A stretch of DNA of 64,000 nt from Syntrophomonadaceae bacterium. GTDB lineage: Bacteria > Bacteroidota > Ignavibacteria > Ignavibacteriales > SURF-24. Numbering within the stretch: position 1 is the first letter of the stretch; each line of letters starts with the position of its first letter. The stretch is from positions 23,374 through 87,373 of the forward strand of contig JBLNAZ010000082.1 in NCBI GenBank assembly GCA_050259615.1. Direction: 5' to 3'. Both the position numbers and the translations under genes were made by a program. This document shows positions 35,639-61,855 of the stretch, piece by piece. The notes beneath the pieces were generated by a model that was not told the DNA's origin, did no database searches, and worked only from the letters and a program-made list of their open reading frames with translations.

Positions 35639-35657
35639 TTTTTTCTCTTCAATTTGT

Positions 35658-36878: not shown

Positions 36879-36879
36879 A

Positions 36880-38163
36880 TCAAATCAGCTTTAAGTTAGT
36901 GTTAAACCAATAGTTAATTTTGAAGAAAAGCCTGAGATCGTCTTTGTAAATACGGTTGTTCAGGTACTGTCCCTGGAGGTCAAAAGAAAGCGCCTTCCAC
37001 GGGCGCAGGTTGAATCCTGCCAGGACCGAGGTCAGGTTGTTCTTCGGATCATCCTTAGAAAGTTTGTATGAAGTATATGCCAGGCCTAATGACGGGGTAA
37101 GGAATCCGTCCATCATTGTATAGGCGCCGTATAAAGAAACTGCGTCCATCTCACCTGCATAGCCTAAATTCTTGCGGTAGCTGAGGCTGGCGTAATTGGT
37201 GTTCACACCGACAGTGATTCTCTGCGAATTGTCATCTTTATAGGTAACGTTTGCAAACTTTCCGAAAACTGTATACTGATTAAAGAACCTGTAATCCAAT
37301 CCGCCCTCGATTTCCTGAGTATTTCCGAAATCGAAAACAGAGAAAATTGAGTTATATCTGACCCTTGGTTCTCTATAGTTGTAATATAAATCAACTCCAA
37401 GATTTTCAATCTGTTCGTATCTTCCTGAAACTTCAAACTTCGAAGTCGTCTTGTAGTTCAGGTCGTAGTCATACCTGGTGTCGAGGCTGAACATATTCTC
37501 CTGGCGGTAGGATACATCAGCTGAAGCAAATTTGTACTGATTTGAATTGTTTTCAATCAGTACCTGCATCGGATTCATGTTGGCATCGAAACGTGTGGCA
37601 TAATAATCCAGAGGCTTGAAGTTCTTGTTTATATAACTTAAACCGATCTGAGTATTCTTAATAAAATTAGCGGTGAATTTGCCGCCAAGTATATAGTCGT
37701 CTTTCCAGTTCTTCGTGGTTTCAAACTTCTGATACGCAGGAGTATTTCCCCCGTAATATCCCGAAAGCTTAAAGCCGCTGTATCTTAAATCCATGTCAAC
37801 GCCGTCGAATACGCCGCCGCCGGCAATTGAGTTGAATATCGGCTGGCGTCCAATCTTTATAGTAGCAATATCAAATAAGTTTCTTCCTTCCAGATATAAA
37901 TTATAAAGCCTGAATCTCGGGTCATAATCCTGTTTCTTTGAAAGATCGGATTCGAGATTCATGTAAGAGCGTATAGAAAACTGTCCTTTGTTGATATTCA
38001 AATTGAGCATTTGATATGAGCGGACATTAGTATTAGAAACATCGGTTGTGTCGAATCGCTCAAACGTATAAATGGAAGACGAAAGTCTTCCATTTATATT
38101 TTGTGCAGAAATCAAAACAGGCAAACCGAGAAGCAATATACAGAATGATATAAATTTATTCAT
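36880..38163 (-). CDS. outer-membrane beta-barrel protein (porin component of a porin-cytochrome module, inferred)
   Basis: Signal peptide MNKFISFCILLLGLPVLISAQ. 427 aa, no Cys/haem motif, rich in Y/G/N/S with alternating hydrophobic pattern. It is embedded between cytochrome genes with 16-nt and 1-nt spacers. Confidence 0.75.
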   Translation of the reverse strand: MNKFISFCILLLGLPVLISAQNINGRLSSSIYTFERFDTTDVSNTNVRSYQMLNLNINKGQFSIRSYMNLESDLSKKQDYDPRFRLYNLYLEGRNLFDIATIKIGRQPIFNSIAGGGVFDGVDMDLRYSGFKLSGYYGGNTPAYQKFETTKNWKDDYILGGKFTANFIKNTQIGLSYINKNFKPLDYYATRFDANMNPMQVLIENNSNQYKFASADVSYRQENMFSLDTRYDYDLNYKTTSKFEVSGRYEQIENLGVDLYYNYREPRVRYNSIFSVFDFGNTQEIEGGLDYRFFNQYTVFGKFANVTYKDDNSQRITVGVNTNYASLSYRKNLGYAGEMDAVSLYGAYTMMDGFLTPSLGLAYTSYKLSKDDPKNNLTSVLAGFNLRPWKALSFDLQGQYLNNRIYKDDLRLFFKINYWFNTNLKLI

Positions 38164-38179
38164 TGCCTTCCCATTTAAA

Positions 38180-38746
38180 TTATTTAGTTTCTTTTGGAAC
38201 CATGTGACTTATTTTCGCCCAGAATTTGTCATATTCAAAGCCTGTGAACGTCGGGCTCTTTGAGTTATGGCAGCCTGTGCAGAATTTTTCCTTGTCCTTG
38301 TGAACTACCAGGCCTTTTGCCATGGCTTCTTCCTGATTCTTCATTACCTTCTGGTATTCCGAACCGGCGCCGTGGCAGGTTTCGCACTGAACGCCGTCTT
38401 CAACTTTGAATTTGGCACCCTTTAAAGAAGCATCAACATCGTATCCGCTTGCATGGCACTGAAGGCATTCTTTTGTCTCGGCAGCTTTAGTGGTAAAGCC
38501 CTTTTCTTTTGCTATCTTATCGGCTTTTTCTGTCTGAAGAGTTTTATAAGCTTCTGCGTGTTTTGAGCTCTGCCATATTGATAACTGTTTGCCCTGCTTT
38601 TCTGTCTTGTGGCACATACCGCACTTTTCCACACCAACGTATCCAAATTTCTTTGCGCTGGTGTCCTTGTCCTGGGCATTTGCAGTAACTGCAAACAGGC
38701 CTATCGATCCCAGAAGGACTGTACCAGCTAATAGTCTGTGTAACAT
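38180..38746 (-). CDS. periplasmic tetrahaem c-type cytochrome (cytochrome c554-like motifs)
   Basis: I prefer ATG 38746 (GGAGG 5 nt upstream) over the tracked TTG 38758. Signal peptide ...AVTANAQ. Haem motifs CGMCH, CLQCH, CETCH, CTGCH; C..CH......W.SSKHA pattern. Confidence 0.88.
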   Translation of the reverse strand: MLHRLLAGTVLLGSIGLFAVTANAQDKDTSAKKFGYVGVEKCGMCHKTEKQGKQLSIWQSSKHAEAYKTLQTEKADKIAKEKGFTTKAAETKECLQCHASGYDVDASLKGAKFKVEDGVQCETCHGAGSEYQKVMKNQEEAMAKGLVVHKDKEKFCTGCHNSKSPTFTGFEYDKFWAKISHMVPKETK

Positions 38747-38950
38747 TATAACCTCCAATTAATTAATGATGAGCATATATGATTTATTTAGTGTTCCCCA
38801 ATTATGTCACAGATGAGTCAAATCGTAAAAAAATGAGCTACAATATATTCAAATAACGGTTAAAGAAGCAATAAAATGATAATGGAATCCTTAAATATTA
38901 TTATCAAATTTCAGAACAAAATATAGTGGAAATTCTTTGCATAATAGCAA

Positions 38951-38975
38951 TACAGGCGATAGAAGATCGCCTGTA
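38951..38975. other. perfect 10-bp stem-loop inside the 311-nt AT-rich spacer of the cytochrome operon
   Basis: TACAGGCGAT (38951..38960), loop AGAAG, ATCGCCTGTA (38966..38975). TTTT follows on the plus strand only. Confidence 0.5.
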
Positions 38976-39057
38976 TTTTGGAATGTTTTATATTTAAAAA
39001 GAACATATGTATTAAAAGCTTCAGCACCTGGGGGGGAGGGAGGCTGAAAACTTTAAC

Positions 39058-41685: not shown

Positions 41686-41708
41686 AAGTAACCACTCCTG
41701 AAAAGGGA

Positions 41709-42137
41709 TTATTTGTTTTTGTTCAATGTCTCGGCATATTTTTCTGCTACCTCCTGTACTGATTTGCTTGAAACCAACTGATAAATCCTGTCCCTGACCT
41801 GAGCCCATTCTTCATGTAAAGGGCATGGGTTTTCTTCTGAGCATTCCTTGAGCCCTGTAACGCATTTAAGGTTAATAACAGGCCCTTCAACTCTTTCAAC
41901 AATTTCAAGGATAGAACTTTTCATAGCTAAATCAGTAATCTGGAATCCGCCGCCTCTTCCCTTAAAAGAATCGACGTAACCATATTTTGCCATTCTCTGC
42001 AGAATTTTTGCCAGATAATGTGCCGGAATGTCCTCGCTTTTGGCTATTTCCGAAGACATAATCAGACTTTCTTTAGGCTGCCTGGCTAGAAAAAGAATAG
42101 CACGGATAGCATACTCACCCGTTTTTGTGTAAATCAT
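41709..42137 (-). CDS. Rrf2-family transcriptional regulator with IscR-like cluster ligands
   Basis: N-terminal wHTH (GEYAIRAILFLARQ...SSEIAKSEDIPAHYLAKILQRM) and C-x6-C-x5-C-x2-H (CVTGLKECSEENPCPLH). It is the first gene of the cytochrome operon, 23 nt before the next start. Confidence 0.88.
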   Translation of the reverse strand: MIYTKTGEYAIRAILFLARQPKESLIMSSEIAKSEDIPAHYLAKILQRMAKYGYVDSFKGRGGGFQITDLAMKSSILEIVERVEGPVINLKCVTGLKECSEENPCPLHEEWAQVRDRIYQLVSSKSVQEVAEKYAETLNKNK

Positions 42138-46225: not shown

Positions 46226-48121
46226 ATGTCTGAAGAAAACAAACTCCATGGCGAGGTTTTCTATCCTTCTGAAGCCGTTATTAATAAGGCGCATGCAAAG
46301 GACTGGGATAAAATCTGCAAAGAAGCAGAAGAGGATCTGGAGGGCTTCTGGGCTAGTGAGGCAGAGGAACTCCATTGGTTTAAGAAATGGGATAAGGTTT
46401 TGGACGACAGCCAGAAACCTTTTTATAAATGGTTTACAGGGGCAAAGACTAACATTGTCTATAACTGCCTCGACCGTCATACACAGACTTTCCGCAGGAA
46501 CAAGCTTGCACTCATCTGGGAAGGGGAGAGCGGGGAATTCCGCAGCTTTTCATATTTTGCACTCAGGCGCGATACATGCCGCTTTGCCAGCATTCTGAAA
46601 AGTCTCGGTGTACAAAAAGGAGACAGGGTAACACTCTACATGGGAAGAATACCCGAACTTGTAATAGCAATGCTTGCATGTGCAAGAATAGGAGCCATAC
46701 ACTCCGTGGTTTACGGAGGCTTTTCCGTGGAAGCCCTTCACGAAAGACTTGAGGACAGCCAGTCGAAAGTTCTTGTTGTAGCCGACGGAAGCTACCAGAG
46801 AGGGAAAACTGTACACCTGAAGCAGATTGCCGATGAGGCACTTCAAAGAGCTGCAACAGTTGAAAGCGTGCTGGTTGTAAAACGTACGGGCGAGGAAGTA
46901 AACATGGAAGCCGGGCGCGACATGTGGTACCACGAGCTGATGAACCTTCCTATTGCCGGCTCAGCCTGCCACATTGAAGTAATGGATGCCGAGGATCCGC
47001 TTTTTATTCTTTATACCTCAGGTACTACCGGAAAACCCAAGGCTATCGTACACACGCACGGCGGCTACATGGTGGGTGTTTATTCAACTCTTAAATATGT
47101 GTTTGATATACATGAGGAAGACCGCTACTGGTGCAGCGCCGATCCGGGCTGGATCACTGGCCACAGCTATATCGTTTACGGACCCCTTCTGAACGGCACC
47201 ACATCTTTTATGTATGAGGGCGCCCCGACGCACCCGTTCCCGAACCGCTGGTGGCAGATGATTGAAAAGTACGGCATTAATCTTCTCTATACGGCACCTA
47301 CTGCCATCAGGGGACTTATGCGTTACGGCGAGGCCTGGCCTAACAGGTACGACCTCTCATCACTCCGCATACTCGGTTCCGTTGGCGAACCGATAAATCC
47401 CGAAGCATGGAAATGGTACTACAGGACTATCGGAAAGGAACGCTGCCCGATAATGGATACGTGGTGGCAGACTGAAACAGGGATGTTCATGGTTACGCCT
47501 GTTCCCACCATGCCCCTTAAACCGGGCTCGGGTACAAGACCTTTTGCAGGACTTCAGATGGATGTGGTAAACGAGGATGGAGTGCCGGCAGCTCCCAATG
47601 AAGAAGGATACCTCGTTATCAAAACTCCATGGCCCGCAATGATAAGAACTATTTATAAGGATCCCGACAGATATGTAAACCAGTACTGGAGCCGATTCCC
47701 GGGGATGTATATGACAGGCGACTCTGCGCGTAAGGACGAGGACGGCTACTTCTGGATAATAGGCAGGGTTGATGATGTACTTAAAGTTTCAGGCTACCGC
47801 CTGGGAACAGCTGAAATTGAAAGCGCCCTGGTAAGCCACCCGGCCGTTGCCGAGGCTGCTGCAATAGGACTGCCGCACGATGTAAAGGGAAATGCAATTT
47901 ATTCTTATGTGATACTGAAATCGGGATTTGAAAAAAGCGACCAGCTTGCCGAAGAGCTGCGCCAGCACGTGGGCCATGAAATGGGTCCAATTGCAAAACC
48001 CGAAAAAGTGGAATTTGTGGATACGCTTCCAAAAACCAGGAGCGGAAAAATAATGCGCCGCGTCCTAAAGGCTCAGGCCCTGGGGCAGGATCCCGGAAAC
48101 ATTTCCACGCTCGAAGAATAA
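46226..48121 (+). CDS. acs: acetyl-CoA synthetase (AMP-forming)
   Basis: 631 aa. YTSGTTGKPK, C-terminal PKTRSGKIMRR, N-terminal region typical of Acs. GGAGAGG lies upstream of the ATG. Confidence 0.9.
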   Translation: MSEENKLHGEVFYPSEAVINKAHAKDWDKICKEAEEDLEGFWASEAEELHWFKKWDKVLDDSQKPFYKWFTGAKTNIVYNCLDRHTQTFRRNKLALIWEGESGEFRSFSYFALRRDTCRFASILKSLGVQKGDRVTLYMGRIPELVIAMLACARIGAIHSVVYGGFSVEALHERLEDSQSKVLVVADGSYQRGKTVHLKQIADEALQRAATVESVLVVKRTGEEVNMEAGRDMWYHELMNLPIAGSACHIEVMDAEDPLFILYTSGTTGKPKAIVHTHGGYMVGVYSTLKYVFDIHEEDRYWCSADPGWITGHSYIVYGPLLNGTTSFMYEGAPTHPFPNRWWQMIEKYGINLLYTAPTAIRGLMRYGEAWPNRYDLSSLRILGSVGEPINPEAWKWYYRTIGKERCPIMDTWWQTETGMFMVTPVPTMPLKPGSGTRPFAGLQMDVVNEDGVPAAPNEEGYLVIKTPWPAMIRTIYKDPDRYVNQYWSRFPGMYMTGDSARKDEDGYFWIIGRVDDVLKVSGYRLGTAEIESALVSHPAVAEAAAIGLPHDVKGNAIYSYVILKSGFEKSDQLAEELRQHVGHEMGPIAKPEKVEFVDTLPKTRSGKIMRRVLKAQALGQDPGNISTLEE

Positions 48122-50877: not shown

Positions 50878-50910
50878 GAAAACAGTTAGAGCGGAAAATA
50901 TTCCGCTCTA
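50878..50910 (-). terminator. terminator of the tricarboxylate operon
   Basis: TAGAGCGGAA (50887..50896), loop AATA, TTCCGCTCTA (50901..50910). On the minus strand it is followed by ACTGTTTTC. Confidence 0.7.
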
Positions 50911-50943
50911 AATATAACACGAACCAAATATATAATTTGGGTA

Positions 50944-52500
50944 TTATTCGGTAACCTGGAACACTGAATCGAGCACTGTCCCGTCCACCCATTTGACTAC
51001 AGCCACAACTTTGTCCTTATTGATTTTCGGCTTAGCCGGGGCGCCGCCGCAGATCTCGAAAACCTCGTCGCGTATCTGCTCAATCGGCTTAATTGGAAGG
51101 CTTGAATTCTCAACCGCCTTTAAGAGGTCCTGCCTCTTAGGGTTTATTGCAATGCCGCGTTCAGTTATAATGACGTCTATCAGCTCGCCGGGCCCGCAGA
51201 GTGTGGTGACTTCATCCACAATTACAGGTATTCTGTCGCGGAAAGAGGGAATTGCAAGAATGGTGCATTTTGAGTAGAGACAGTTCTGCCAGCCGCCTAT
51301 TCCGTGTAGAAGGTATCCGTCTGAATGCGTTACAACGTTTGCATTAAAGTTTACATCCACTTCGGTAGCCCCAAGGACTGCGGTATCGATAATGGAGGCA
51401 AAGTTGCCCTTGCCGTGGAAGTTATAGCTGGTAAAGGGACTCGTGTTAACGTGATTGGGGTTTTCTCTCATCGAGCGTACGCCTTCAAGATCGAATGTCT
51501 GTCCGTCTAATATGTAATCTGTAAGTCCTTCTTCCAGAAGCTGCACAAGGTACTTCGTGCTGCCGCCTCTTACAAAACGGGCCTTTACTCCCTTTGCTTT
51601 CATCTTTTCTTTCAGGTATAAAACGAATGCCAGATTAGTTCCTCCTGCACCTGCCTGGAAGGAAAATCCGTCTTTCATGATACCTGCTTCTTCAATAAAC
51701 TGTGCGACGTATTCAGCAATAAGAAGCCTGTCGGGGCTCTTAGTTACTTCCGTTGTTCCTGAAACAATTTTGGAAGCGTCTCCAAGTGAATCTATCTGAA
51801 CTACATAATCCACGTTGTTTCCCTGTATCTGCCAAGGAACGCAGGGGAAGGGAACAAGGTTGTCTGTTACAACAATTACACGGTCGGCATACTCAGAGTC
51901 GCCAAGTGCAAAGCCAATAAGACCGCTTGCCGACTTACCGTTGACGCCGTTTGCATTGCCGAAGGCGTCAGCCGTCGGTGAAGCAATTACTGCAATATCA
52001 ATATGAACCTCACCATCCTGTATCGCCTGGTAGCGACCGCCGTGTGAACGGAGAACACCTACGCCCTTCATTTTCCCCTGTGTGGTATAGCGGCCTAAAG
52101 GACCGTTCATGCTTCCTTCAATGTGGCTTATTGTGCCGTCTTCAAGGTATGGGATCAGGTGCTCATGGCAGGGAAAAGATGCACTCGGGAACCAGCGAAT
52201 GTTCTTAATGCCCATTTCATGAATTACGTCAAAGAGCATATTTGTAAGTACGTCGCCGTTTCTTAAATGGTGATGCGTTGAGATGGTCATGCCGTCTTTA
52301 ATGCCCGCCTTTACTAAAGCTTCCTTAAGGCTGCCAGCCAGTTTATTGCCGTCTTCAGGATAATCTATGCAGCTTCTTATCTGCGGCTTCGCCTTGCAGC
52401 CCTCGGGTTTATATTTATTTACTCCCTGGAAGGGGATCTGGGGCTCTCCGTTTATTTCATCCGGAACAAGTCTTCCGGCAGCATTTTTCAGTAGTTTCAT
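50944..52500 (-). CDS. citF: citrate lyase alpha subunit (citrate CoA-transferase)
   Basis: 518 aa with the STHHHLRNGD block typical of CitF. Its start lies 2 nt after the CitDE stop. Confidence 0.82.
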   Translation of the reverse strand: MKLLKNAAGRLVPDEINGEPQIPFQGVNKYKPEGCKAKPQIRSCIDYPEDGNKLAGSLKEALVKAGIKDGMTISTHHHLRNGDVLTNMLFDVIHEMGIKNIRWFPSASFPCHEHLIPYLEDGTISHIEGSMNGPLGRYTTQGKMKGVGVLRSHGGRYQAIQDGEVHIDIAVIASPTADAFGNANGVNGKSASGLIGFALGDSEYADRVIVVTDNLVPFPCVPWQIQGNNVDYVVQIDSLGDASKIVSGTTEVTKSPDRLLIAEYVAQFIEEAGIMKDGFSFQAGAGGTNLAFVLYLKEKMKAKGVKARFVRGGSTKYLVQLLEEGLTDYILDGQTFDLEGVRSMRENPNHVNTSPFTSYNFHGKGNFASIIDTAVLGATEVDVNFNANVVTHSDGYLLHGIGGWQNCLYSKCTILAIPSFRDRIPVIVDEVTTLCGPGELIDVIITERGIAINPKRQDLLKAVENSSLPIKPIEQIRDEVFEICGGAPAKPKINKDKVVAVVKWVDGTVLDSVFQVTE

Positions 52501-52502
52501 TT

Positions 52503-53720
52503 TCAGCTCATCCTCCAGTCTTCTGGAATAAGTTTATTTAACAGTGCCAGATGAATAGTGTTGCGTGCCCTTTTTACTACAGGCGCATCAATCATTTTGC
52601 TTCCCAGGGAAACCACGCCTATGCCTTTTCTTTCAGCGTCTTCAAAGGCAAGCACAATTTTCTTTGCCTTCTCTATTTCAGCTTCACCCGGGGCAAAGGC
52701 TTCATTGATGACCTTAATCTGCCTCGGGTGTATGCAGCCTTTGCCTTCAAAGCCTAACGACTTTGCTTCAAGGACGCTTTTACGCAGGCCTTCCATATCG
52801 CTTACATCCGAAAATACGGTGTCTATTGCCTGTATGCCCGCAGCCTTTGCGGCATTTACCAGCATGGAACGCGCAAAGAAGCTTTCTTTTCCTTCGTCTG
52901 TCCTCTGAGTGCCAAGGTCTGCCGTATAATCCTCAAGTCCTATTGCAAGCGAACATACATTTTCGCTTGCCGAGGCAATTTCGTAAGCTCTCATTATTCC
53001 GAGCGCGCTTTCAATTATCGGCATGTAGTAAATTTCATTTGTAATATTGTATTCTTTCTTAAGGCGCAGCACCTCGTTATCCACGTCGTATACCTGCTCG
53101 GCGCTTTCGCACTTGGGAATTAAAATTACGTGAACGTTGTGAGGCACAATAAAATTAAGATCGCTTTTACCAAGCGGAAGCTGGTTGATCCTTACCATTC
53201 TTTCCACGCCGTAGAAGTCAACCGTGCGCAGAGCGTTTCTGACCATAAGCTGTGCGGCCTCTTTTTCTACAGGAGCAACGCTGTCCTCAAGATCAAGTAT
53301 TATTCCGTCAGGCTCATGAAGTCCAGCATTCGGGAAGAACTTTGGTTCGTTGCCCGGAAGGTAAAGCCTGCTTCTTCTTAACTTTTCCTTTGTTGTTGCA
53401 TAAGTGTTTCTCTTATTCATCGGAAGAAGGTATTGTTTTTTATTCTCTGGGAATAGCCTGTTTACTGCAAGCTCAAACCTTGCTGCAAGCACAAAGGGGA
53501 GTGCACCGCTGTCCTCCAGGAGGACGTGCGCATTTGCAATTTCAAAATATTCGCACATGTCAAGGATAAGCTTACGGATGGACTCTCCGTACATAGTCTC
53601 AACCTTGCTCTTAATTTCCAGTTCAATTCCGCCGGAGGACTTCAGCTCTATTTCAAAGTAGCAGTCCGAACGGACTTTGTCTCCCTGCTTTCCGGCAGAA
53701 GTTTTCTTTAATTGTTCCAT
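52503..53720 (-). CDS. citE: fused citrate lyase acyl-carrier (gamma, CitD) and citryl-CoA lyase (beta, CitE) subunits
   Basis: The N-terminal ~95 aa align by eye to CitD (SAG...RSD..., SGALPFVLAARFELAV). The remainder carries HpcH/CitE motifs RSRLYLPGNEPKF, DLEDSVAPVEK, GFEGKGCIHPRQI. Confidence 0.78.
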   Translation of the reverse strand: MEQLKKTSAGKQGDKVRSDCYFEIELKSSGGIELEIKSKVETMYGESIRKLILDMCEYFEIANAHVLLEDSGALPFVLAARFELAVNRLFPENKKQYLLPMNKRNTYATTKEKLRRSRLYLPGNEPKFFPNAGLHEPDGIILDLEDSVAPVEKEAAQLMVRNALRTVDFYGVERMVRINQLPLGKSDLNFIVPHNVHVILIPKCESAEQVYDVDNEVLRLKKEYNITNEIYYMPIIESALGIMRAYEIASASENVCSLAIGLEDYTADLGTQRTDEGKESFFARSMLVNAAKAAGIQAIDTVFSDVSDMEGLRKSVLEAKSLGFEGKGCIHPRQIKVINEAFAPGEAEIEKAKKIVLAFEDAERKGIGVVSLGSKMIDAPVVKRARNTIHLALLNKLIPEDWRMS

Positions 53721-53751
53721 ATGTTTCTCTTGAGTTAATTAAAGTTAATTC

Positions 53752-53780
53752 CGGCATTAAGGCCAGAGGTCTTAATGCCG
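53752..53780 (-). other. intercistronic perfect 10-bp stem-loop (PrpD-family / CitDE spacer)
   Basis: CGGCATTAAG (53752..53761), 9-nt loop, CTTAATGCCG (53771..53780). Confidence 0.55.
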
Positions 53781-53796
53781 TAAACATCCGTATTTT

Positions 53797-55164
53797 CTAA
53801 ACTACAAGGCTGGCCATAAATTCTTTTGCTGTCATGTTTTCACAGCTGAATATGGTCTCTTTTACCGCCTTCTGTCTTTCAGCTGAAAGGAGCTTTGATG
53901 AAAGCGCATTGAATTTATTTTCAAGGTCTTCCATTGTCATCGGTTCTCTCGGATCACCTTTGGGGAATTCCAGGTATTCGGTAAATTCACGTCCGTCTAC
54001 TGTTCTGATCTTAACCCTTGAAGGCTGCTTGGCCGGGAACATTTTTTCAAACTCTAAAGATGCCTCGCCCTTTATCTTATCTATTACTTCCCAGATTGCG
54101 GGATCTTTCATCTTTTCTTCAGAGAAGGAGTTTGTAGTAATCTTATGGTCAACCAGTGCCGCGGCAATGCAGTAGGGGAGTGAATGGTCTGCAGTCTCCC
54201 TTGATTCAGGACGGTACTTGTGAGGGTCGAACAGTATGTCGCATGCCCTTGCAATTGTTGTAACAGTAACTGAATCTATATCCTTATAGCTGATATTATT
54301 TTTTGTTACCACTTTCAGCGTGCATGTAATGTGCGTATGCGTAAGGGCTTCAGTGGGGAATGCCTTCATGCTGCATTCCATAATCTTAAACTTCTGCCCG
54401 AGATCGCAGAGGAGCTTATCATTGTCCCATTTGGGACCGAATACATCCATGAATCCCTCTTTTCCTTCAAATACGGCTTCTGTACCCGTGTAGCCTTTCT
54501 GGGCCATAAGAGCTGCAAAGACGCCTGCCTGAACAGCCATGGGGTCAACCGTATTTTTCATCATCGTAAGCTTTCCAGCAGTGGGGCAGCCTATGGTGTG
54601 GTTATGGGAGCCGTTAATACCAATAGCGTGAACCATCTGGTCAACCGTAAGTCCCAGAACTTTTCCGGCAACAATAGGAGAAACAAACTGTGTTAAAGTT
54701 GCATGATGCCACTTGCGCTCACGCACTCCCGGGACTGCAAACTCGCACAGGCGCTGCTCAAATTCATATGCAAGCACAATTGCCGTAATTACGTCCTTCA
54801 TTGAAGCTCCCGAAAGTTCTGCAGCCGAAAGTGCAGCGGGAATTAAATCCGAAGGATGTGAAGGATCTTCTTTCCAGTATATGTCGTTAAAATCCAGTGC
54901 GCGAATCATGAGTGAGTTAACAAGGGCTGCGTTAACAGCAGGCATCTTGTCGCCGAAACCGATCAGTGCTGCCTGGCTGTTTCCGCCCATTTCTTTATAA
55001 ATATCCCTAAGAATGTTAACGTCTTTGGTGTGGTAGCCTCCGTAGGCGCATCCCACAGAATCGTACAGGTATCTTTTGACTTCATTGACTACTTCCTTTG
55101 GAAGGTCCTCATATTTAAGGTTAACTGCAAATTCAGCAATCTGACGTGAAAATGACTTTTCCAT
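53797..55164 (-). CDS. MmgE/PrpD-family protein (2-methylcitrate dehydratase-like)
   Basis: 455 aa. The N-terminal pattern FAVNLKYEDLPKEVVNEVKRYLYDSVGCAYGG is typical of the PrpD family. Substrate not inferable. Confidence 0.8.
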   Translation of the reverse strand: MEKSFSRQIAEFAVNLKYEDLPKEVVNEVKRYLYDSVGCAYGGYHTKDVNILRDIYKEMGGNSQAALIGFGDKMPAVNAALVNSLMIRALDFNDIYWKEDPSHPSDLIPAALSAAELSGASMKDVITAIVLAYEFEQRLCEFAVPGVRERKWHHATLTQFVSPIVAGKVLGLTVDQMVHAIGINGSHNHTIGCPTAGKLTMMKNTVDPMAVQAGVFAALMAQKGYTGTEAVFEGKEGFMDVFGPKWDNDKLLCDLGQKFKIMECSMKAFPTEALTHTHITCTLKVVTKNNISYKDIDSVTVTTIARACDILFDPHKYRPESRETADHSLPYCIAAALVDHKITTNSFSEEKMKDPAIWEVIDKIKGEASLEFEKMFPAKQPSRVKIRTVDGREFTEYLEFPKGDPREPMTMEDLENKFNALSSKLLSAERQKAVKETIFSCENMTAKEFMASLVV

Positions 55165-55236
55165 AATACCTCTGATAAAATTTTACTGGAAGACAGCCCA
55201 TTAAAAGCCGAGCCGCCTTCCAAAGTTTTATAAATC

Positions 55237-57198
55237 TTACAAATTGTTTTTAACCCAGTTTTCAAGTCCGCCGAAAACTATGAGCTCTTGTGCTGCAGCT
55301 CCAACGGGACTTATCTTATATTGTTTTCCTTCTGCCGAAAGAACTGAACGCCTGAAATCAATTTCAGCCGTAATGCCGGTTTTAACAGTAAGCGTGTCCT
55401 GCCCGAATTTGTTCTTCAGTTCTTTAATCAGTTCAGGGGCCTCTATAAGCAGGAATCCGTTATTAAGCGCGTTTCTCTTATAGGTTTCGTTAAACGATCC
55501 GGCCACAACAAGCTGAATGCCCCTGTACTTAAGGGCTGTTGCCGCCTGCTCCCTTGAGCTTCCGGTTCCGAAGTTGAAGCCGCCTGCAAGTATGTCGCCC
55601 TTATTTACAATCTTTCCGAATTCAGGATCATAGTTTTCCATAACAACCTGAGCCTGTTCATCGGGAGTCATGTCGTCGTTATACGTATACTTGCCGGGAT
55701 AAATTCCGTCAGTATTCATATTATCCTGGTGGCAGAAGATAAGTTCACCTATAACTTTTTCAGCAAAGCCTTCAATGATTTTAATTTCTTCATCAACGGA
55801 GGAATTATTCTTTGCTTCTTTTATCGTGCCCGTAAGTTTTGCTGTCTTGCCGGTCCAGTCGAAGGTAATCTTACCTGAAAGTGCGCTTGAGGCCACAACG
55901 GCAGGGGAGGCCAGGTAAGCCTGTGCATTGGGAGAACCCATTCTTCCCTTGAAGTTTCTGTTTGTGGCGGAAATGCCCACTTCACCGTCTTCCAGGAGTC
56001 CTGTTCCAAGTCCTATGCATGGTCCGCAGCCAGGAGGAAGCGGTATTGCCCCGGCATCCAGTAACGCCTGCCAGTCGCCGCGCTTTTCGCTTTCAGCCTG
56101 AACTTCGCTTGAGGCTGCTGCAATGTAGAACTTGACGCCTTCGTGTACTTTCTTTCCCTTAACAATCTTTGCTGCTTCAGAAAGATCATCCACACGGCTG
56201 TTGACGCAGGAAACAAGATACGCCTTATGGATTTTCACGTCCTTATCCTTAATTTCAGAAACAGGCGTCATTACCTTAACCGTATTAGGCCCTGAAACGT
56301 AAGGCTCCACTGAAGAGAGGTCCAGTTCAATTTCCTTTTCATAGAACGCGTCAGTATCAGCCTTCAGCGATTCTTTTTCAAGTGTGTCAATTCTTTCTTT
56401 ATTTATGCGTGTGTTATAGCCATTCGAGTCTGAGTTAACCCCGGCAGGACCTCTTTTTGAAAGGAACATTTCTCTGGTTTTAAGCCAGTTTATTGTTACC
56501 TCATCAATAGGGAATACGCCTGCAAGGGCGCCCCATTCGGTTGTCATATTGGCAATGGAAAGCCTTTCATCAACTGAAAGATACTTTACTCCTTCACCTG
56601 TAAATTCAATTGCATGGTTAAGCACCTCATCGTGGTTGAAGAAACCGCAGAGGGCTATGATTACGTCCTTACCTGTAACCCCGGGCTGAAGTTTTCCCTT
56701 TAGTTCAACTTTAGCTATAGGGGGCACCTGCCACCATGTTCTGCCTGTAGCCCAGATGGCTGCAGCATCGGTTCTGACTATAGGGGTGCCAAGGCATCCC
56801 AGGCCGCCATACATATTAGAATGGCTGTCTGAAGCAACTACCATTGTGCCCGGAAAGGCATAGCCCTCCTCGCACATGATCTGATGCCCGATACCACGGC
56901 CTGCAGGATAAAAATCGGCTCCCATGCTTTTTGAGAACGCCTCTATCTTTTTATACTTCTCGAGGTTCTTTTCGCTTTTATCCTGTACGTTATGGTCAAG
57001 TGTATTTACAACCTGATTCGGGTTCTGGAGTTTTGTTGCTCCGATGCTTTTGAATTTTGGAATTACGGCTCCCGTATTATCGTGTGTCATTACATAGGCG
57101 GGTCTGATCGAAATATAATCCCTGGCGTGAACCTGCTGTGAGGCTGCAAGCCCCACGGCAAATCTCTGTGCAATTTTTTCTATTAATGTCTGCGACAT
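55237..57198 (-). CDS. fused aconitase-family hydro-lyase (LeuC-like + LeuD-like; homoaconitase/isopropylmalate isomerase type)
   Basis: I prefer ATG 57198 (AGGAG 8 nt upstream) over the tracked 57252. Cluster Cys in VSCVNSR and PGCGPCIG; swivel-domain motif GFNFGTGSSREQAA. Confidence 0.85.
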   Translation of the reverse strand: MSQTLIEKIAQRFAVGLAASQQVHARDYISIRPAYVMTHDNTGAVIPKFKSIGATKLQNPNQVVNTLDHNVQDKSEKNLEKYKKIEAFSKSMGADFYPAGRGIGHQIMCEEGYAFPGTMVVASDSHSNMYGGLGCLGTPIVRTDAAAIWATGRTWWQVPPIAKVELKGKLQPGVTGKDVIIALCGFFNHDEVLNHAIEFTGEGVKYLSVDERLSIANMTTEWGALAGVFPIDEVTINWLKTREMFLSKRGPAGVNSDSNGYNTRINKERIDTLEKESLKADTDAFYEKEIELDLSSVEPYVSGPNTVKVMTPVSEIKDKDVKIHKAYLVSCVNSRVDDLSEAAKIVKGKKVHEGVKFYIAAASSEVQAESEKRGDWQALLDAGAIPLPPGCGPCIGLGTGLLEDGEVGISATNRNFKGRMGSPNAQAYLASPAVVASSALSGKITFDWTGKTAKLTGTIKEAKNNSSVDEEIKIIEGFAEKVIGELIFCHQDNMNTDGIYPGKYTYNDDMTPDEQAQVVMENYDPEFGKIVNKGDILAGGFNFGTGSSREQAATALKYRGIQLVVAGSFNETYKRNALNNGFLLIEAPELIKELKNKFGQDTLTVKTGITAEIDFRRSVLSAEGKQYKISPVGAAAQELIVFGGLENWVKNNL

Positions 57199-57261
57199 CG
57201 TTTTATCTCCTGAAAAGAGTTCATTTACGTGCTTTAGAAGTTTACAATACAATTTTAGCAG

Positions 57262-57288
57262 GGCAGGGGGATTATGGGTCCCCCTGCC
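57262..57288 (-). other. intercistronic GC-rich 10-bp stem-loop (HD / aconitase-family spacer)
   Basis: GGCAGGGGGA (57262..57271), loop TTATGGG, TCCCCCTGCC (57279..57288). No U-run after it on the minus strand. Confidence 0.55.
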
Positions 57289-57298
57289 TTAAACTCAA

Positions 57299-57832
57299 TT
57301 AAGCCTTGAACGGATCGAAACTCACAAAATCTGCATGATGAACTATAATGGATTCAACAGTCCTCATCCCAAGGTCGCCCTCTTTGGAGTGTGTTGCAAT
57401 TATGTGCTGAACTTCAGGCGGGATGCCGAAGCGGTCCACTATGCCAATGCCGCTGAAAGGGTGCCTGAGGAGTTTTCCGGCAAAGCTGGTTGTAAGTTTT
57501 CCATCCTTTATTTCATACTCAAGAAGCTTTCCAACGTCAATTAAAATAGCGCCTGCAATAAGTGTATCCATGTCTATTTTAATTTCGCTTCCGAAGTTTT
57601 CCGTCATTGTTTTTGCCATATCAACTGCGAGTTTCACGCAGGTGCGCTTATGGTTCATGAAAGTGATCCTGCAGTCCTTTAAGAGAAGTGAAAATGGGAT
57701 CTTTTCAAGATCTTCTGCAGCAAGAACGCTGTTTTCAATTGCATAAACCCAGCAGTCGGTTACCTTATTCCTGAGATCCTCATTTTTAATCCAGTTGATC
57801 TCGGGCCATATCTTAAGTACTTTATCGCGCAT
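57299..57832 (-). CDS. HD-domain-like protein with altered HD dyad
   Basis: 177 aa. It has the HD-domain layout (NHKRT..., AGAILIDVGK, ATHSKEGD, VHHADF), but ID stands where the canonical LLHDIGK has HD. Confidence 0.7.
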   Translation of the reverse strand: MRDKVLKIWPEINWIKNEDLRNKVTDCWVYAIENSVLAAEDLEKIPFSLLLKDCRITFMNHKRTCVKLAVDMAKTMTENFGSEIKIDMDTLIAGAILIDVGKLLEYEIKDGKLTTSFAGKLLRHPFSGIGIVDRFGIPPEVQHIIATHSKEGDLGMRTVESIIVHHADFVSFDPFKA

Positions 57833-57842
57833 TATTATCCCC

Positions 57843-59018
57843 TCACAGTTTGGCTATTATTGCATCTGTCATTTCCTGTGTTGTACAGGCACCATGCTTA
57901 AATACGTCGGGACCGCCTTTAAGCTTCATCATGTCGTATGTTTTAACGCTGCCTTCTTCAATTACCTGTGAAATTGCGCGGCGGATCTTTCCGGCCTTTT
58001 CATTTTCACCTATATGGTCGAGCATCATGCATGCGCTTAATATCATGGCAATTGGGTTTACAATTGAGGGGTTCAATTCCTGGTACTTTGGTGCAGAACC
58101 GTGTGTGGGTTCGAACACAGCAACTTCCTGTCCAATGTTAGCGCTGCATGCAAAGCCCAGTCCGCCAACGAGGCCTGCAAAGCCGTCGCTTATTATGTCG
58201 CCGAACATATTTTCTGCAACTATAACGCCGTAAGATTCAGGGTTCTTTGTAAGCCACATCATCTGTGCGTCGATGTTTGTATCCCAGAGCTCAATTCCGG
58301 GGTAGTTCTTTGCAATTTCCTTTGCTTCCTTGAACATCATACCTGAAGTTTCCCTTAATACGTTTGGTTTTTCGCACAGGGTGAGGTTCTTATACCCGTA
58401 TTTTTTTGCATACTCGAAGGCCGCCGTAAGGATTCTTCTTGAGGCGTTTCTCGTAACTATACGCGTTGAAACAGCCAGATCTTCACTCGGTGTATCCTTA
58501 AAGAACTTCATCTTGGGGTGTGTTTCAAGAGCATCGCGGACCTGTTTCGGGGGATTTGTCCATTCAACTCCGGCATAGAGACCTTCGGTATTCTGCCTGA
58601 AGATTACAGTATCCACCATCGGCTCTTCAAAGCCATCAGAAGTTCTGCGTATAAAATTGAGCGGATTGCCCTTAAATGAAAGGCATGGACGGATGCAGAT
58701 ATCAAGGTTGAAATGCTGTCTTAAGCCGACAATCGGGCTGAAATAAACATAACCTTTATCGCGGAGCGACGGATCCAGTTCCCTGGCAGCGGCGTCTTTG
58801 GGCTTGCTTGTTATTGCACCAAAAAGGCCTGTTTTGTGCTCAGAAAGAAGATCTATCGTTCTTTGGGGTAATGCATTTCCCTCTTTTATCCAGAAATCCC
58901 ATCCAATATCACCATGGACATAGTTTGCTTCAAAACCTACTGCATCTAAAACTCTGATTGCTTCAGGAAGAACTGTTTTGCCTATACCGTCGCCAGGCAT
59001 TGATACAATTGTGCGCAT
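57843..59018 (-). CDS. isocitrate/isopropylmalate dehydrogenase-family beta-decarboxylating dehydrogenase
   Basis: MPGDGIGKTV, RQNTEGLYAG, NMFGDIISDGFAGLVGGLG family signature. Confidence 0.85.
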   Translation of the reverse strand: MRTIVSMPGDGIGKTVLPEAIRVLDAVGFEANYVHGDIGWDFWIKEGNALPQRTIDLLSEHKTGLFGAITSKPKDAAARELDPSLRDKGYVYFSPIVGLRQHFNLDICIRPCLSFKGNPLNFIRRTSDGFEEPMVDTVIFRQNTEGLYAGVEWTNPPKQVRDALETHPKMKFFKDTPSEDLAVSTRIVTRNASRRILTAAFEYAKKYGYKNLTLCEKPNVLRETSGMMFKEAKEIAKNYPGIELWDTNIDAQMMWLTKNPESYGVIVAENMFGDIISDGFAGLVGGLGFACSANIGQEVAVFEPTHGSAPKYQELNPSIVNPIAMILSACMMLDHIGENEKAGKIRRAISQVIEEGSVKTYDMMKLKGGPDVFKHGACTTQEMTDAIIAKL

Positions 59019-59259: not shown

Positions 59260-59973
59260 ATGAAAAAGTTGTACACTTTAGTTGTCCTCTTGCTCATGTC
59301 TTTTTTAATTGCTTCCTGCTCAAAAAAAGATGATAACCCAAATGGTCCGGGAACCAATGATACAGCACCCGGAATTCCCACCGTAACCTTTAAAGGGCCT
59401 AATACCAATTCAACTGATCAGTTTGCACTTTTGACAAAATCATCTGTTGAATCAATGAATGCATACCCGATGCTTTTTTACGGTGTGTTTGCATCAATTC
59501 CGCCAAGTAACAGCGATGGAAAGTGGCAATGGGTAGTTAAGCCTGGCGGTACGGCTACAGAGACATTTACTGCTTCGAAGAACTCGGACGGCAGCTTTAC
59601 ATGGAAGCTGATCTTAAACGGGACAATTGATAACAACAGCTACAATAACTGGAAAGCTCTAGAAGGGACAACCAGTGCAGACGGAAAAAATGGAAACTGG
59701 AAAATATTTGACGATAACACTACAATCCTTGTGGGAGAATTTAACTGGAGCACCAATTCAGGCGGAATTCTTTCAGGCACAATGTTAAGTTACAATAACG
59801 GAGTTGCTTCCGGAAAAATTGAAGTAGTAAATAATCCGGATAATTCAGGTTCACTTAAGGTCTATGGCGAAACTAATGTCCTGGAATTCCTTTCCACCTG
59901 GAAAGCCGATGGCACCGGTACCTGGCATTCTTACGACAACGGCGTGGAGAAGACCAACGGGAACTGGCAGTAA
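59260..59973 (+). CDS. lipoprotein, unknown family, paralog 1 of 3
   Basis: Lipobox LIASC. Blocks shared with the two downstream genes: SFTWKLILNGT, GTTSADGKNGNWKIFDDNTTILVGEFNW, DGTGTWHSYDNG. Confidence 0.85.
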   Translation: MKKLYTLVVLLLMSFLIASCSKKDDNPNGPGTNDTAPGIPTVTFKGPNTNSTDQFALLTKSSVESMNAYPMLFYGVFASIPPSNSDGKWQWVVKPGGTATETFTASKNSDGSFTWKLILNGTIDNNSYNNWKALEGTTSADGKNGNWKIFDDNTTILVGEFNWSTNSGGILSGTMLSYNNGVASGKIEVVNNPDNSGSLKVYGETNVLEFLSTWKADGTGTWHSYDNGVEKTNGNWQ

Positions 59974-60002
59974 GCCTTAAACAGATACAATTTACTTTTT
60001 TC

Positions 60003-60035
60003 AGCCCCTTTCATCATTGGAAGGGGCTTTTTTTT
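60003..60035 (+). terminator. rho-independent terminator after paralog 1
   Basis: AGCCCCTT (60003..60010) pairs with AAGGGGCT (60021..60028), followed by TTTTTTT. Confidence 0.85.
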
Positions 60036-60154
60036 ACTTTCCATAACTTAAGCTTACAGGTTTGGTTTCAGCAAAAAAATATTTAACTTAACCGCTGCAA
60101 ATTCAGGGCTCTGACAGAATTCAAATAACTATAGACTTAAAAAGGGACTCTAAA

Positions 60155-60859
60155 ATGAAAAAATGGCACTCCTTTGTTCTTCTGTTACTTTTTCCCGTTT
60201 TAATTACTTCATGTTCCCAAAAGGATAATCCCGCGGGCGCAGAAAATCAGGATGCTGTTTCACTTCCTACTTTTTCTTTTAAGGCACCTAATACTGCCTC
60301 AAAAGACCAGTATGCCACAAAAACAAAGGAGCAGATTTCTTCAGCTAATGATTACGCTCAGATCATCAGTTCTGCATTTGTCCATATTTCACCAAGTAAG
60401 AACGGGAACACATGGACCTGGGTCTGGCAGGCCGGAGGGGGAGCAACCGAAACCTTGACGGGGTTAAAGAATACTGACGGCAGCATTTCCTGGGAATTGA
60501 TTCTCAATGGAAACATTTATGGTCAAAACTACAGCAACAGGAAAATTATGGACGGCACCACAAGCGCAGACGAAAAAAAGGGAAACTGGAACATTTATGA
60601 CCAAAATACAACCATCCTGGTATCCAGGCTTTCCTGGACTTCTGATGAGAGCGGAGTTATTTCTGGCACAGTGGCAAAATATTCTTTCTCACTTGTGACA
60701 GGTAAAAAGGAAATAATAAACAGGCCGGATAAATCGGGTGAACTGACGGTTTACGATGAAAATAGCCTGATAACATTCCAGTCGAGCTGGAAAACAAATG
60801 GCAGCGGCGACTGGAAGTCATATACGAACGGTCTGGAAACAGCAAGCGGAAGCTGGTAA
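60155..60859 (+). CDS. lipoprotein, unknown family, paralog 2 of 3
   Basis: Lipobox LITSC. Blocks SISWELILNGN, GTTSADEKKGNWNIYDQNTTILVSRLSW, NGSGDWKSYTNG. Confidence 0.85.
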   Translation: MKKWHSFVLLLLFPVLITSCSQKDNPAGAENQDAVSLPTFSFKAPNTASKDQYATKTKEQISSANDYAQIISSAFVHISPSKNGNTWTWVWQAGGGATETLTGLKNTDGSISWELILNGNIYGQNYSNRKIMDGTTSADEKKGNWNIYDQNTTILVSRLSWTSDESGVISGTVAKYSFSLVTGKKEIINRPDKSGELTVYDENSLITFQSSWKTNGSGDWKSYTNGLETASGSW

Positions 60860-60871
60860 TAATATTATTTA

Positions 60872-60903
60872 AGCCCCTTTCATTCTCCGGAAGGGGCTTT
60901 TTT
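60872..60903 (+). terminator. rho-independent terminator after paralog 2
   Basis: AGCCCCTT (60872..60879) pairs with AAGGGGCT (60891..60898), followed by TTTTT. The stem sequence is identical to the terminator at 60003. Confidence 0.85.
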
Positions 60904-61129
60904 CCCTTCCCCCATGGGCCTAAAAACCCGCCTTTCACGTTCAACGGCCTTCACACATCCAGGCCTTCGGCAAATAAGGTAAGTCCCTCCAAAAAGGCAC
61001 TGCTAAGTAAAAAAAGATTTCATATCATATTGTAACGCAAGAAGATTGTTACTTTACATTGCCGCGTTTTTATACGGTCAGGAATTGACGATAAAAGTCT
61101 TGTTAAAATAAGAGAAGGGAGAAGTTCAT

Positions 61130-61855
61130 ATGAAAAGATCATTTAGCTTTTTAGTTCTGTCTTTTTTGATATTGGCTTTCCTTGCAGCGGGCTGTTCCAA
61201 AAAAGACGATAACCCCGCAGCTCCGGCAGTTGTTACTAATCCCGGTACGCCCCCTGAAGTCCCGAACGTTGGTATAAAGGGCCCCTCTTCAACTTCAAAC
61301 GATCCGTTCTTTTTACTGGCCAAAAGCTATTTTAACAGCCTTGGCACCTTCACATATTATTCAGACATGTTCCGAAATGTACAGGCCGTTTATTCAGACA
61401 CCGGCTGGGTAAGAAAATTTCTGAACGGATCTATTACAGCCACACTGACTTCAACCAGGCTTGCCGACGGGTCCATCAGCTGGAAACTGATTTTGAACGG
61501 CACTACGGACAGCGTTACATATAATAACTGGCTCGCCCTGGAGGGCGTCTCAAGTGCCGACGGGAAGTCGGGAACATGGAAACTGTTCCATCAGAATACA
61601 AATCTCCTTACCGGTGACTACAGCTGGCAGAAAAATGCTGACAGCTCAATTACCGCAACTATAAGAGATTATAACGCCAGCGGCACCATCCGTACGAGAA
61701 TAGAAGCTACGGATAAGGCGGACAATTCAGGACAGGTGCTTGTATATTTTTACACCAGTCTCTCGTTTAAGGCCTCCTGGCTCTCAGATGGCACTGGGCA
61801 GTGGTGGACATACGACTCCTCCGGGAACATCCGCCACCAGGGCACCTGGTCATAA
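61130..61855 (+). CDS. lipoprotein, unknown family, paralog 3 of 3
   Basis: Lipobox LAAGC. Blocks SISWKLILNGT, GVSSADGKSGTWKLFHQNTNLLTGDYSW, DGTGQWWTYDSSG. Confidence 0.85.
   Translation: MKRSFSFLVLSFLILAFLAAGCSKKDDNPAAPAVVTNPGTPPEVPNVGIKGPSSTSNDPFFLLAKSYFNSLGTFTYYSDMFRNVQAVYSDTGWVRKFLNGSITATLTSTRLADGSISWKLILNGTTDSVTYNNWLALEGVSSADGKSGTWKLFHQNTNLLTGDYSWQKNADSSITATIRDYNASGTIRTRIEATDKADNSGQVLVYFYTSLSFKASWLSDGTGQWWTYDSSGNIRHQGTWS

Follow-up and report, generated by a model that had tools for sequence, protein, structure and literature searches.

A conserved six-gene tricarboxylate cluster of Ignavibacteria as a candidate lower half of an oxygen-independent lysine catabolic route

An Ignavibacteriales genome deposited as Syntrophomonadaceae bacterium (assembly GCA_050259615.1) was analysed around a stretch of 64,000 nt of contig JBLNAZ010000082.1 (positions 23,374 to 87,373; the whole stretch is called the window here). 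At 50944-59018 on its minus strand lies a cluster of six genes encoding a beta-decarboxylating dehydrogenase of the isocitrate/isopropylmalate dehydrogenase (IDH/IPMDH) family, a small HD-fold protein, a single-chain aconitase-family hydro-lyase, an MmgE/PrpD-superfamily protein, a CitD-CitE fusion (CitDE) and a CitF-type protein (Table 1). We propose that this cluster provides the lower half of a lysine catabolic route compatible with anaerobic life, in effect a “reverse upper alpha-aminoadipate pathway”. Substrates and direction are those we infer, and we consider the proposal close to an even prospect, though somewhat short of one. All of the enzyme families are known; what is new is the phyletic link to lysine-to-aminoadipate genes within one order, together with the lack of the canonical helpers of citrate lyase.

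In the proposed route, lysine would be converted to 2-aminoadipate by L-lysine 6-transaminase (or by saccharopine enzymes) and L-piperideine-6-carboxylate (P6C) dehydrogenase, which are encoded outside the cluster, and a transaminase would then yield 2-oxoadipate. The IDH-like enzyme would carboxylate 2-oxoadipate reductively to homoisocitrate, consuming CO2 and NAD(P)H, after which the hydro-lyase, which is of the Lys4 type, would form cis-homoaconitate and the PrpD-family enzyme would convert this to homocitrate. CitF would exchange the acetyl group of an acetylated acyl carrier protein (acetyl-ACP) for homocitrate, giving homocitryl-ACP and acetate, and the CitE domain would cleave homocitryl-ACP to 2-oxoglutarate and acetyl-ACP, thereby regenerating the carrier. 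The net reaction would be lysine + 2-oxoglutarate + CO2 -> 2 glutamate + acetate; it would need no oxygen, and it would be redox-neutral because the carboxylation consumes the NADH from the aldehyde dehydrogenase. For the citrate series it is established that IDH-type enzymes can run in reverse and that, at physiological concentrations, the cleavage of one molecule into two exerts a pull; we would expect the same of the homo-series. The reaction of the PrpD-like protein, the role of the HD protein and the manner of carrier priming are likewise put forward as presumptive parts of the scheme. Homocitrate would more probably arise in the course of lysine or 2-oxoadipate breakdown than serve as a growth substrate.

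More tentatively, the genes may specify a complete, redox-neutral and oxygen-independent pathway with an ACP-dependent homocitrate lyase that dispenses with CitC, CitG and CitX, a PrpD-family homocitrate hydro-lyase and an HD protein belonging to the isomerase module. This fuller version, which we hold to be possible but doubtful, would imply a new mode of carrier priming, would make the PrpD-like protein the “missing” partner of Lys4 and the HD protein a carrier of a remodelled metal site, and would give the pathway a wide distribution among Ignavibacteria and allied lineages of sediment and soil. Neither the pathway, nor cleavage of homocitrate by a citrate-lyase-type complex, nor a PrpD-type homoaconitase partner was found in the searchable literature.

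The six-gene arrangement is not a chance neighbourhood. We compared 80 related loci around the PrpD-like gene and 41 related Ignavibacteriales genomes, 35 of them cluster-positive and six cluster-negative, which share ancestry and are not independent samples. The order IDH-like, HD, aconitase-like, PrpD-like, CitDE, CitF is repeated in dozens of Ignavibacteria loci, including those of Ignavibacterium album and Melioribacter. An identical set of 35 of the 41 genomes carries the PrpD-like gene and the HD gene; 33 of these also have CitF, and no CitF was found in the remaining six. Across the 41 genomes the genes are gained and lost together. The linkage is looser in some genomes: adjacency is limited to the HD, aconitase-like and PrpD-like genes in those labelled Zixibacteria, and one genome (G042) carries three separate modules, namely HD-ACN-PrpD (ACN being the aconitase-like gene), IDH-x-CitDE-CitF and LAT-x-P6CDH (lysine transaminase and P6C dehydrogenase). 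Parts of five of the six genes are represented among contigs from rice-paddy RNA libraries, at 93-97% identity to the window. These contigs, which come from close relatives, bridge the IDH/HD and HD/aconitase junctions and so lend weak support to expression and to the co-transcription assumed in a preliminary description of the locus; most of CitDE and part of PrpD have no cover, which is not evidence of silence.

Several Ignavibacteria have acquired inserts in the spacers of the cluster while retaining the six-gene order (L082:4044-7908, L040:5116-7925, L042:6372-7955 and others). Among the inserts are genes for an Eco57I-type methylase, a PIN protein, a 23S-rRNA-intervening-sequence protein, a DUF4143 ATPase, a YhcG nuclease and a protein with a type IX secretion system (T9SS) tail. 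As candidates for citX or citG the inserted genes were ruled out; they are patatin, IS200-like, restriction-modification, PIN and similar genes, some of them mobile.

The link to lysine comes from enzymes encoded elsewhere. In the genome that contains the window (96% complete), an L-lysine 6-transaminase (TIGR03251, 637.6 bits against a cut-off of 520.8; contig C178) and a P6C dehydrogenase (NF050084, 812.5 bits against 730; contig C241) both exceed their thresholds. Of the 35 cluster-positive genomes, 33 have an orthologue of the latter, against none of the six that lack the cluster; these six span five genera of four families and include one within-genus contrast. Either the transaminase or a pair of lysine-ketoglutarate reductase and saccharopine dehydrogenase is found in 34 of the 35 cluster-positive genomes. 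The nominal Fisher values (6e-6 and 7e-4) overstate the association because the genomes are related; the pattern is, however, repeated in several lineages, and the presence of dapA, taken as a control, is unrelated to that of the cluster. Among five genomes of the Zixibacteria/Calditrichota type outside the order, the two with a CitF orthologue, and no others, have a P6C dehydrogenase above its cut-off. The co-occurrence with lysine-to-aminoadipate enzymes points towards a C6/C7 dicarboxylate or tricarboxylate series.

In relatives without the transaminase, lysine-ketoglutarate-reductase-like and saccharopine-dehydrogenase genes adjoin the orthologous aldehyde dehydrogenase. In one of these genomes (G033, contig C80:3071-8481, locus L119) the pair lies beside a tetrapyrrole-methylase gene whose orthologue (66% identity) flanks the transaminase in the genome of the window (C178:41577-43698, locus L118), which looks like a non-orthologous replacement at one locus, with the transaminase and the saccharopine pair as alternatives. 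From 2-oxoadipate the known continuations lead to glutaryl-CoA or, by the oxygen-dependent HglS, to 2-hydroxyglutarate. HglS (PF07063) was not found in the genome of the window, and a search for the LOR/SDH N-domain (PF04455) found none. Four acyl-CoA dehydrogenases score 231-322 bits against the only matching curated model of glutaryl-CoA dehydrogenase (cut-off 470), and one of the decarboxylating type is possible among them.

The cluster is an extra, separate set of tricarboxylate enzymes, the fourth in the genome. Citrate synthase, which the preliminary description had suggested looking for, is encoded outside the cluster, as are a long aconitase, an NADP-isocitrate dehydrogenase that scores 680 bits (cut-off 567) and a protein resembling NAD-IDH. 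A leuC/leuA/leuB group also lies elsewhere. Because separate paralogues exist for both, the cluster serves neither the tricarboxylic acid (TCA) cycle nor leucine synthesis, and because the only HMGL-like synthase of the genome sits in the leucine group, no homocitrate synthase was found in it.

By its sequence, the aconitase-family protein is predicted to be a homoaconitase of the fungal Lys4/LysF type. It reaches 895.4 bits with TIGR00139, the curated fungal homoaconitase model (cut-off 529.9), the Atlas cluster closest to it is “Homoaconitase, mitochondrial family” (score 0.98, bacteria and fungi mixed), and its best PDB match is the large subunit of M. jannaschii homoaconitase. Cys331, Cys391 and Cys394 (CGPC motif) are invariant in 13 orthologues, as is the loop PGKYTY; given the known spacing in aconitases, we take the three cysteines to be ligands of a 4Fe-4S cluster. 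Fungal homoaconitases interconvert only homoaconitate and homoisocitrate, and a second enzyme is required for the homocitrate half (PMC3556520). That Lys4-type enzymes cover the homoisocitrate half-reaction only would explain why the hydro-lyase is paired with a PrpD-family neighbour in every lineage seen.

This neighbour would accordingly be a cis-homoaconitate/homocitrate hydro-lyase. It appears to represent a very large and highly conserved subfamily that is distinct from characterised PrpD. Scores against the PrpD equivalog models stay far below the cut-offs (68.4 against 458 bits for TIGR02330, 91 against 575 for NF006943 and 90 against 950 for NF042438). The subfamily comprises more than 7900 database clusters, with at least 80% identity among the 120 matches listed, and its next relatives show no more than 53% identity, except for one partial match of 375 aa at 65%. 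The neighbourhoods of six relatives at 41-53% identity were inspected, and one was telling. At this locus (L113:628-11485, GCA_038882735.1), relatives of the HD and PrpD-like proteins (44-46% identity) are encoded beside a second PrpD-family gene, a split aconitase (420 + 162 aa) and a gene of the isocitrate-lyase/phosphoenolpyruvate (PEP)-mutase family.

The dehydrogenase is one of four paralogues in the genome, the others being LeuB, the NADP-IDH and the NAD-IDH-like protein. Its best NCBIfam models are the methanogen homoisocitrate dehydrogenases (HICDHs) AksF and AksF2, and it scores 118-239 bits with the IDH equivalog models, whose cut-offs are 432-585; with the HICDH models, a cluster-linked paralogue in a related locus (L053) reaches 345 bits against a cut-off of 540. 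In the specificity helix, S-P-I-V-G-L-R, Ser113 of E. coli IDH (whose numbering is used) is retained and the position of Asn115 is taken by Ile. In the E. coli enzyme both residues bind the gamma-carboxylate of isocitrate. The dehydrogenase probably forms a distinct clade, and homoisocitrate specificity is proposed for it.

The HD protein has no Pfam match at the default threshold, a sequence search against solved structures gave no match, and the protein departs from the H...HD...D metal-binding motif of HD phosphohydrolases. The H-D dyad is replaced by I-D; Ile or Ala occupies the His position of the dyad in each of the 15 orthologues that come from Ignavibacteria and Zixibacteria loci, His being found only in the distant relative at L113. 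H61, D99, H124, H148, H165, H166 and D168 are nevertheless invariant in 16 orthologues. The AF2 model (pLDDT 89.6) shows a confident HD fold that has no close structural relative; the HD domain of YhaM is nearest (TMq 0.64), and the fold search otherwise returned generic HD folds. In the loci seen, the gene always lies upstream of the aconitase-like gene.

CitDE and CitF do not constitute a canonical citrate lyase system. In the fusion, a CitD-like carrier domain (residues ~16-95) precedes a CitE-like acyl-ACP lyase domain (~113-393), with Pfam scores of 55.6 bits for ACP and 183.7 bits for HpcH_HpaI. Both parts stay below the curated thresholds, at 288.6 bits for the citE equivalog TIGR01588 (cut-off 443.4) and 48.5 bits for the citD model TIGR01608 (cut-off 63.5), and Ser18-Asp19 of the carrier domain is invariant in 38 orthologues. 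CitF matches the PDB entries 2hj0 (396 bits) and 1xr4 (357 bits). A search for citG, citX and citC (PF01874, PF03802 and PF08218), proposed in the preliminary description, had no match in the genome of the window, with a positive E. coli control, and citG (PF01874) had none in the 41 related genomes. The genome also encodes a second, stand-alone CitE-like protein (contig C58:14404-15282), which shares 36% identity with the fusion's CitE part and has neither a carrier domain nor a CitF neighbour.

A number of observations weigh against the proposed lysine route. The cluster is tied to lysine by co-occurrence only, among related and non-independent genomes: none of the 80 related loci has lysine genes within 8 kb of the PrpD-like gene, and two lineages (G024, G026) have the transaminase without the cluster. 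Of the five genomes examined beyond the order, three (labelled Zixibacteria in two cases and candidate division Zixibacteria in one) have HD-ACN-PrpD without a CitF orthologue and without P6C dehydrogenase, and the isomerase trio therefore has some use outside the proposed route. The dehydrogenase falls below the cut-offs of all HICDH models (274.4 against 500 bits for AksF, 271 against 540 for AksF2 and 139 against 680 for iso_homocit_dh). Its specificity helix resembles that of E. coli IDH apart from the change of Asn115 to Ile, and in the alignment with 3asj the Thermus HICDH segment A-I-R85-Y-L-R lies opposite P-I-V-G-L-R, so that Arg85 is absent. The PDB search places the PrpD-like protein nearer to cis-aconitate decarboxylase (CAD; 105 bits) and iminodisuccinate epimerase than to PrpD (57 bits). 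In the alignment with CAD, which reaches 105 bits only, the HPS His, a second His and two Lys are matched by identical residues and the His after FPA lies opposite Glu; these correspond to the presumed catalytic residues of CAD. Finally, CitF narrowly passes the curated model of the citrate lyase alpha subunit (TIGR01584, 511.1 bits against 501.45), and citC, citG and citX, the accessory genes for the prosthetic group of the carrier domain and for its activation, were not found.

Some of these points could be accommodated if the cluster acted on another tricarboxylate or a related acid, with the PrpD-like protein possibly a decarboxylase or isomerase, or if HD-ACN-PrpD and IDH-CitDE-CitF were two modules that are merely neighbours in Ignavibacteria. 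The affinity of the PrpD-like protein to CAD and the epimerase, the trio without a CitF orthologue in three genomes, the separation of the modules in G042 and the isocitrate-lyase/PEP-mutase gene beside a distant relative of the trio would all fit such a reading, as would an HD-variant protein without assigned chemistry and a dehydrogenase, CitE part and CitD part that correspond to no curated equivalog. We nonetheless consider it unlikely, given that the hydro-lyase passes an equivalog-level homoaconitase model, that all six genes are inherited together within the Ignavibacteriales and that they co-occur specifically with lysine-to-aminoadipate enzymes.

Quite improbable, in our estimate, is that CitDE and CitF form a true citrate lyase independent of ATP, with an aconitase and IDH of its own, serving citrate fermentation or a reductive TCA branch from 2-oxoglutarate through isocitrate and citrate to oxaloacetate and acetate that, together with acetyl-CoA synthetase, would stand in for ATP-citrate lyase. 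The I. album orthologues of the last two genes (IALB_1147 and IALB_1146) were read in 2012 as an ATP-independent citrate lyase, with citrate fermentation or an unconventional reductive TCA cycle proposed for that organism, in which 2-oxoglutarate and pyruvate ferredoxin oxidoreductases were also noted (PMC3362086). The score of CitF speaks for this reading, and in a short-segment search the helix of the dehydrogenase (V-G-L-R-Q...I-C-I-R-P) aligns best with NADP-IDH chains. Short-segment searches meant to align it with the fungal HICDH structure gave either no match or IDH chains alone. It would, however, make a second set of three enzymes redundant with the aconitase, NADP-IDH, NAD-IDH-like protein and citrate synthase encoded elsewhere, it is at odds with a Lys4-type hydro-lyase whose fungal counterparts act only on homoaconitate and homoisocitrate and with Ile in place of the isocitrate-binding Asn115, and it leaves the co-inheritance with P6C dehydrogenase unexplained; the subthreshold CitE and CitD parts and the failure to find the helper genes also count against it. 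The AMP-forming acetyl-CoA synthetase that the preliminary description had pointed out 3 kb away (46226-48121) is real (acetate-CoA ligase, TIGR02188, 932 bits) and would suit this reading. It is convergent to the cluster, with a dGTPase gene and a BamB-like gene in between, and adjoins the cluster in one of the 80 related loci; its lack of synteny in the other 79 counts against the reading. Both the reductive TCA branch and the citrate fermentation considered in that description are thus disfavoured on the grounds of the canonical aconitase, IDH and citrate synthase elsewhere and of the citC, citG and citX genes that were not found. Methylcitrate fermentation, which it had coupled to the latter, is unlikely because the carbinol of 2-methylisocitrate cannot be oxidised by an IDH-type enzyme. 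Its third option, catabolism of a citrate homologue such as homocitrate, fared better: the homo-series is best supported, by the TIGR00139 match and by HICDH models that rank first albeit below cut-off, with the change that homocitrate is more likely an intermediate than the substrate.

Very improbable is the biosynthetic direction, from acetyl-ACP and 2-oxoglutarate through homocitrate to 2-oxoadipate for 2-aminoadipate, lysine or a glutaryl- or pimeloyl-derived cofactor with the citrate-lyase-like complex as synthase, for although the three middle enzymes are homologous to the biosynthetic alpha-aminoadipate pathway, several cluster-bearing relatives have no dapA match despite lysA and some have Lys1-like and Lys9-like saccharopine enzymes, the dapA and lysA of the genome of the window exceed their cut-offs, cluster and dapA are not complementary, LysW was not found in this genome or in five others, the saccharopine genes adjoin an aldehyde dehydrogenase (oxidative, catabolic) and not an aminoadipate reductase, ACP-type lyases are known as cleaving enzymes, and the carrier-recharging ligase CitC was not found.

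Lysine biosynthesis was accordingly set aside as the role of the cluster. With regard to lysine genes in the relatives, lysA is well above its cut-off without a dapA match in G015, G018, G021, G027, G029, G032-G034 and G036, and lysC, asd and dapABD were reported missing in I. album (PMC3362086). The genome of the window also encodes a 381-aa protein with the NADP and C-terminal domains of saccharopine dehydrogenase (contig C20:12949-14094, locus L108) that has no NCBIfam match and is conserved in most relatives; it could be a carboxy(nor)spermidine-type or lysine-related enzyme.

Seen against known systems, the proposed lysine route comes closest in its middle steps to the fungal upper alpha-aminoadipate pathway (Lys20/21, Aco2/AcoA, Lys4/LysF, Lys12). 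Both have a single-chain Lys4-type homoaconitase (here above cut-off) and leave the homocitrate half to another enzyme, their beta-decarboxylating dehydrogenases belong to one superfamily and, as proposed, the three intermediates are shared. The cluster differs in the proposed direction, which is reversed, in an ACP-dependent citrate-lyase-type complex that stands in place of homocitrate synthase, in a PrpD-family partner instead of an aconitase, in the additional HD-variant protein and in a dehydrogenase outside the curated HICDH models. With citrate lyase CitDEF and its helpers CitC, CitG and CitX (Klebsiella pneumoniae, E. coli; EC 4.1.3.6) it shares a CitF-type transferase, a CitE-type lyase fold, a CitD-type carrier with a conserved serine and the expected release of acetate. 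In contrast to that system, CitD and CitE are fused and below the equivalog cut-offs, the helper genes were not found, neither an oxaloacetate decarboxylase nor a citrate carrier is linked to the cluster, and the genes are embedded among homo-series enzymes.

As in the 2-methylcitrate cycle (PrpD followed by AcnB), enzymes of the PrpD and aconitase families would split the two isomerisation half-reactions, whereas the cluster has neither PrpC synthase nor PrpB lyase, its PrpD-like protein is far from the PrpD cut-offs and the product would pass to an IDH-type dehydrogenase. Known lysine catabolism by L-lysine 6-transaminase and P6C dehydrogenase, or by way of saccharopine, has its upstream enzymes above cut-offs here, co-occurring with the cluster in the order; unlike in the known continuations, 2-oxoadipate would be carboxylated and lose a C2 unit, and HglS and glutaryl-CoA dehydrogenase were not identified. 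The segment of the reductive TCA cycle from 2-oxoglutarate through isocitrate and citrate to oxaloacetate and an acetyl unit presents the same sequence of reductive carboxylation, isomerisation and C2 cleavage. The proposed series would be one CH2 longer, catabolic rather than autotrophic, and would end in an ATP-independent cleavage to free acetate.

At the locus itself, the preliminary description had listed six minus-strand genes with their family labels and had called the combination one that matches no textbook operon. The genes are real according to the open reading frame (ORF) calls, the labels are upheld by domain matches in Pfam and NCBIfam profile scans, and we concur that no textbook operon corresponds to them. 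The longest ORF of the aconitase-family gene opens at a TTG (57252; 55237-57252), which would leave a spacer of 46 nt to the HD gene. We favour the ATG at 57198 because twelve orthologues begin at that position in the alignment, and with this start, which the value of 100 nt presupposes, the spacers of 10, 100, 72, 76 and 2 nt given earlier are correct. A terminator had been claimed at 50887..50910; an 11-pair hairpin is indeed present at 50911-50886, with a weak T-tract. The hairpin in the HD/aconitase-like spacer is possibly an RNA processing or stability element.

Table 1. Genes and hairpins of the six-gene cluster, in positions of the window.
Feature	Position	Strand	Characteristics
IDH/IPMDH-family beta-decarboxylating dehydrogenase, 391 aa	57843..59018	-	Pfam Iso_dh, 267 bits
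Small HD-fold protein, 177 aa	57299..57832	-	TIGR00277 HDIG, 30.6 bits
Single-chain aconitase-family hydro-lyase, 653 aa from ATG	55237..57198	-	Aconitase and Aconitase_C in one chain
MmgE/PrpD-superfamily protein, 455 aa	53797..55164	-	Pfam MmgE_PrpD_N and MmgE_PrpD_C
CitD-CitE fusion	52503..53720	-	Pfam ACP (residues 18-88) and HpcH_HpaI (116-332)
CitF-type protein, 518 aa	50944..52500	-	Pfam CitF, 461 bits
Terminator-like hairpin 3' of CitF	50886..50911	-	11-pair stem (5 G-C pairs), 4-nt loop, then CTGTTTTCTG; weak T-tract
Perfect 10-bp hairpin, HD/aconitase-like spacer	57262..57288	-	GGCAGGGGGA, loop cccataa, TCCCCCTGCC; without T-run
Perfect 10-bp hairpin, PrpD-like/CitDE spacer	53752..53780	-	CGGCATTAAG, loop acctctggc, CTTAATGCCG

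Divergent from the cluster, on the plus strand at 59260-61855, are three consecutive ORFs (237, 234 and 241 aa) without a Pfam family, the first of which weakly resembles the Riean_0653 family (24.5 bits); this region contains a strong terminator-like hairpin at 60003-60028. Further away, a run of multihaem cytochrome c genes occupies 34733-41808 on the minus strand, one of them encoding a 916-aa protein in which cytochrome c7/c3 repeats are linked to a membrane domain of the cytochrome b561 type. In a related genome (Ignavibacteriaceae cMAG.5, L053:3-3654), a sodium-translocating decarboxylase operon is situated directly upstream of the IDH-like gene of the cluster. It encodes an MmdA-like carboxyltransferase, a 169-aa ORF, a biotin carrier and a beta subunit (TIGR01109, 504 bits), and is of the acyl-CoA type, not of the oxaloacetate decarboxylase type.

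Ignavibacteria and their relatives are common scavengers of peptides and polymers in sediments, paddy soils, hot-spring mats and wastewater reactors. The proposal is readily testable because two carriers of the cluster, I. album and M. roseus, are in culture. If it is true, lysine catabolism would gain a new lower pathway past 2-aminoadipate, one that carboxylates and releases acetate, and a very large and highly conserved PrpD subfamily would gain a physiological role. The “citrate lyase” genes of such genomes would then have to be read differently, which would affect claims of carbon fixation drawn from genomes and metagenomes, including the argument for an unconventional reductive TCA cycle in I. 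album.

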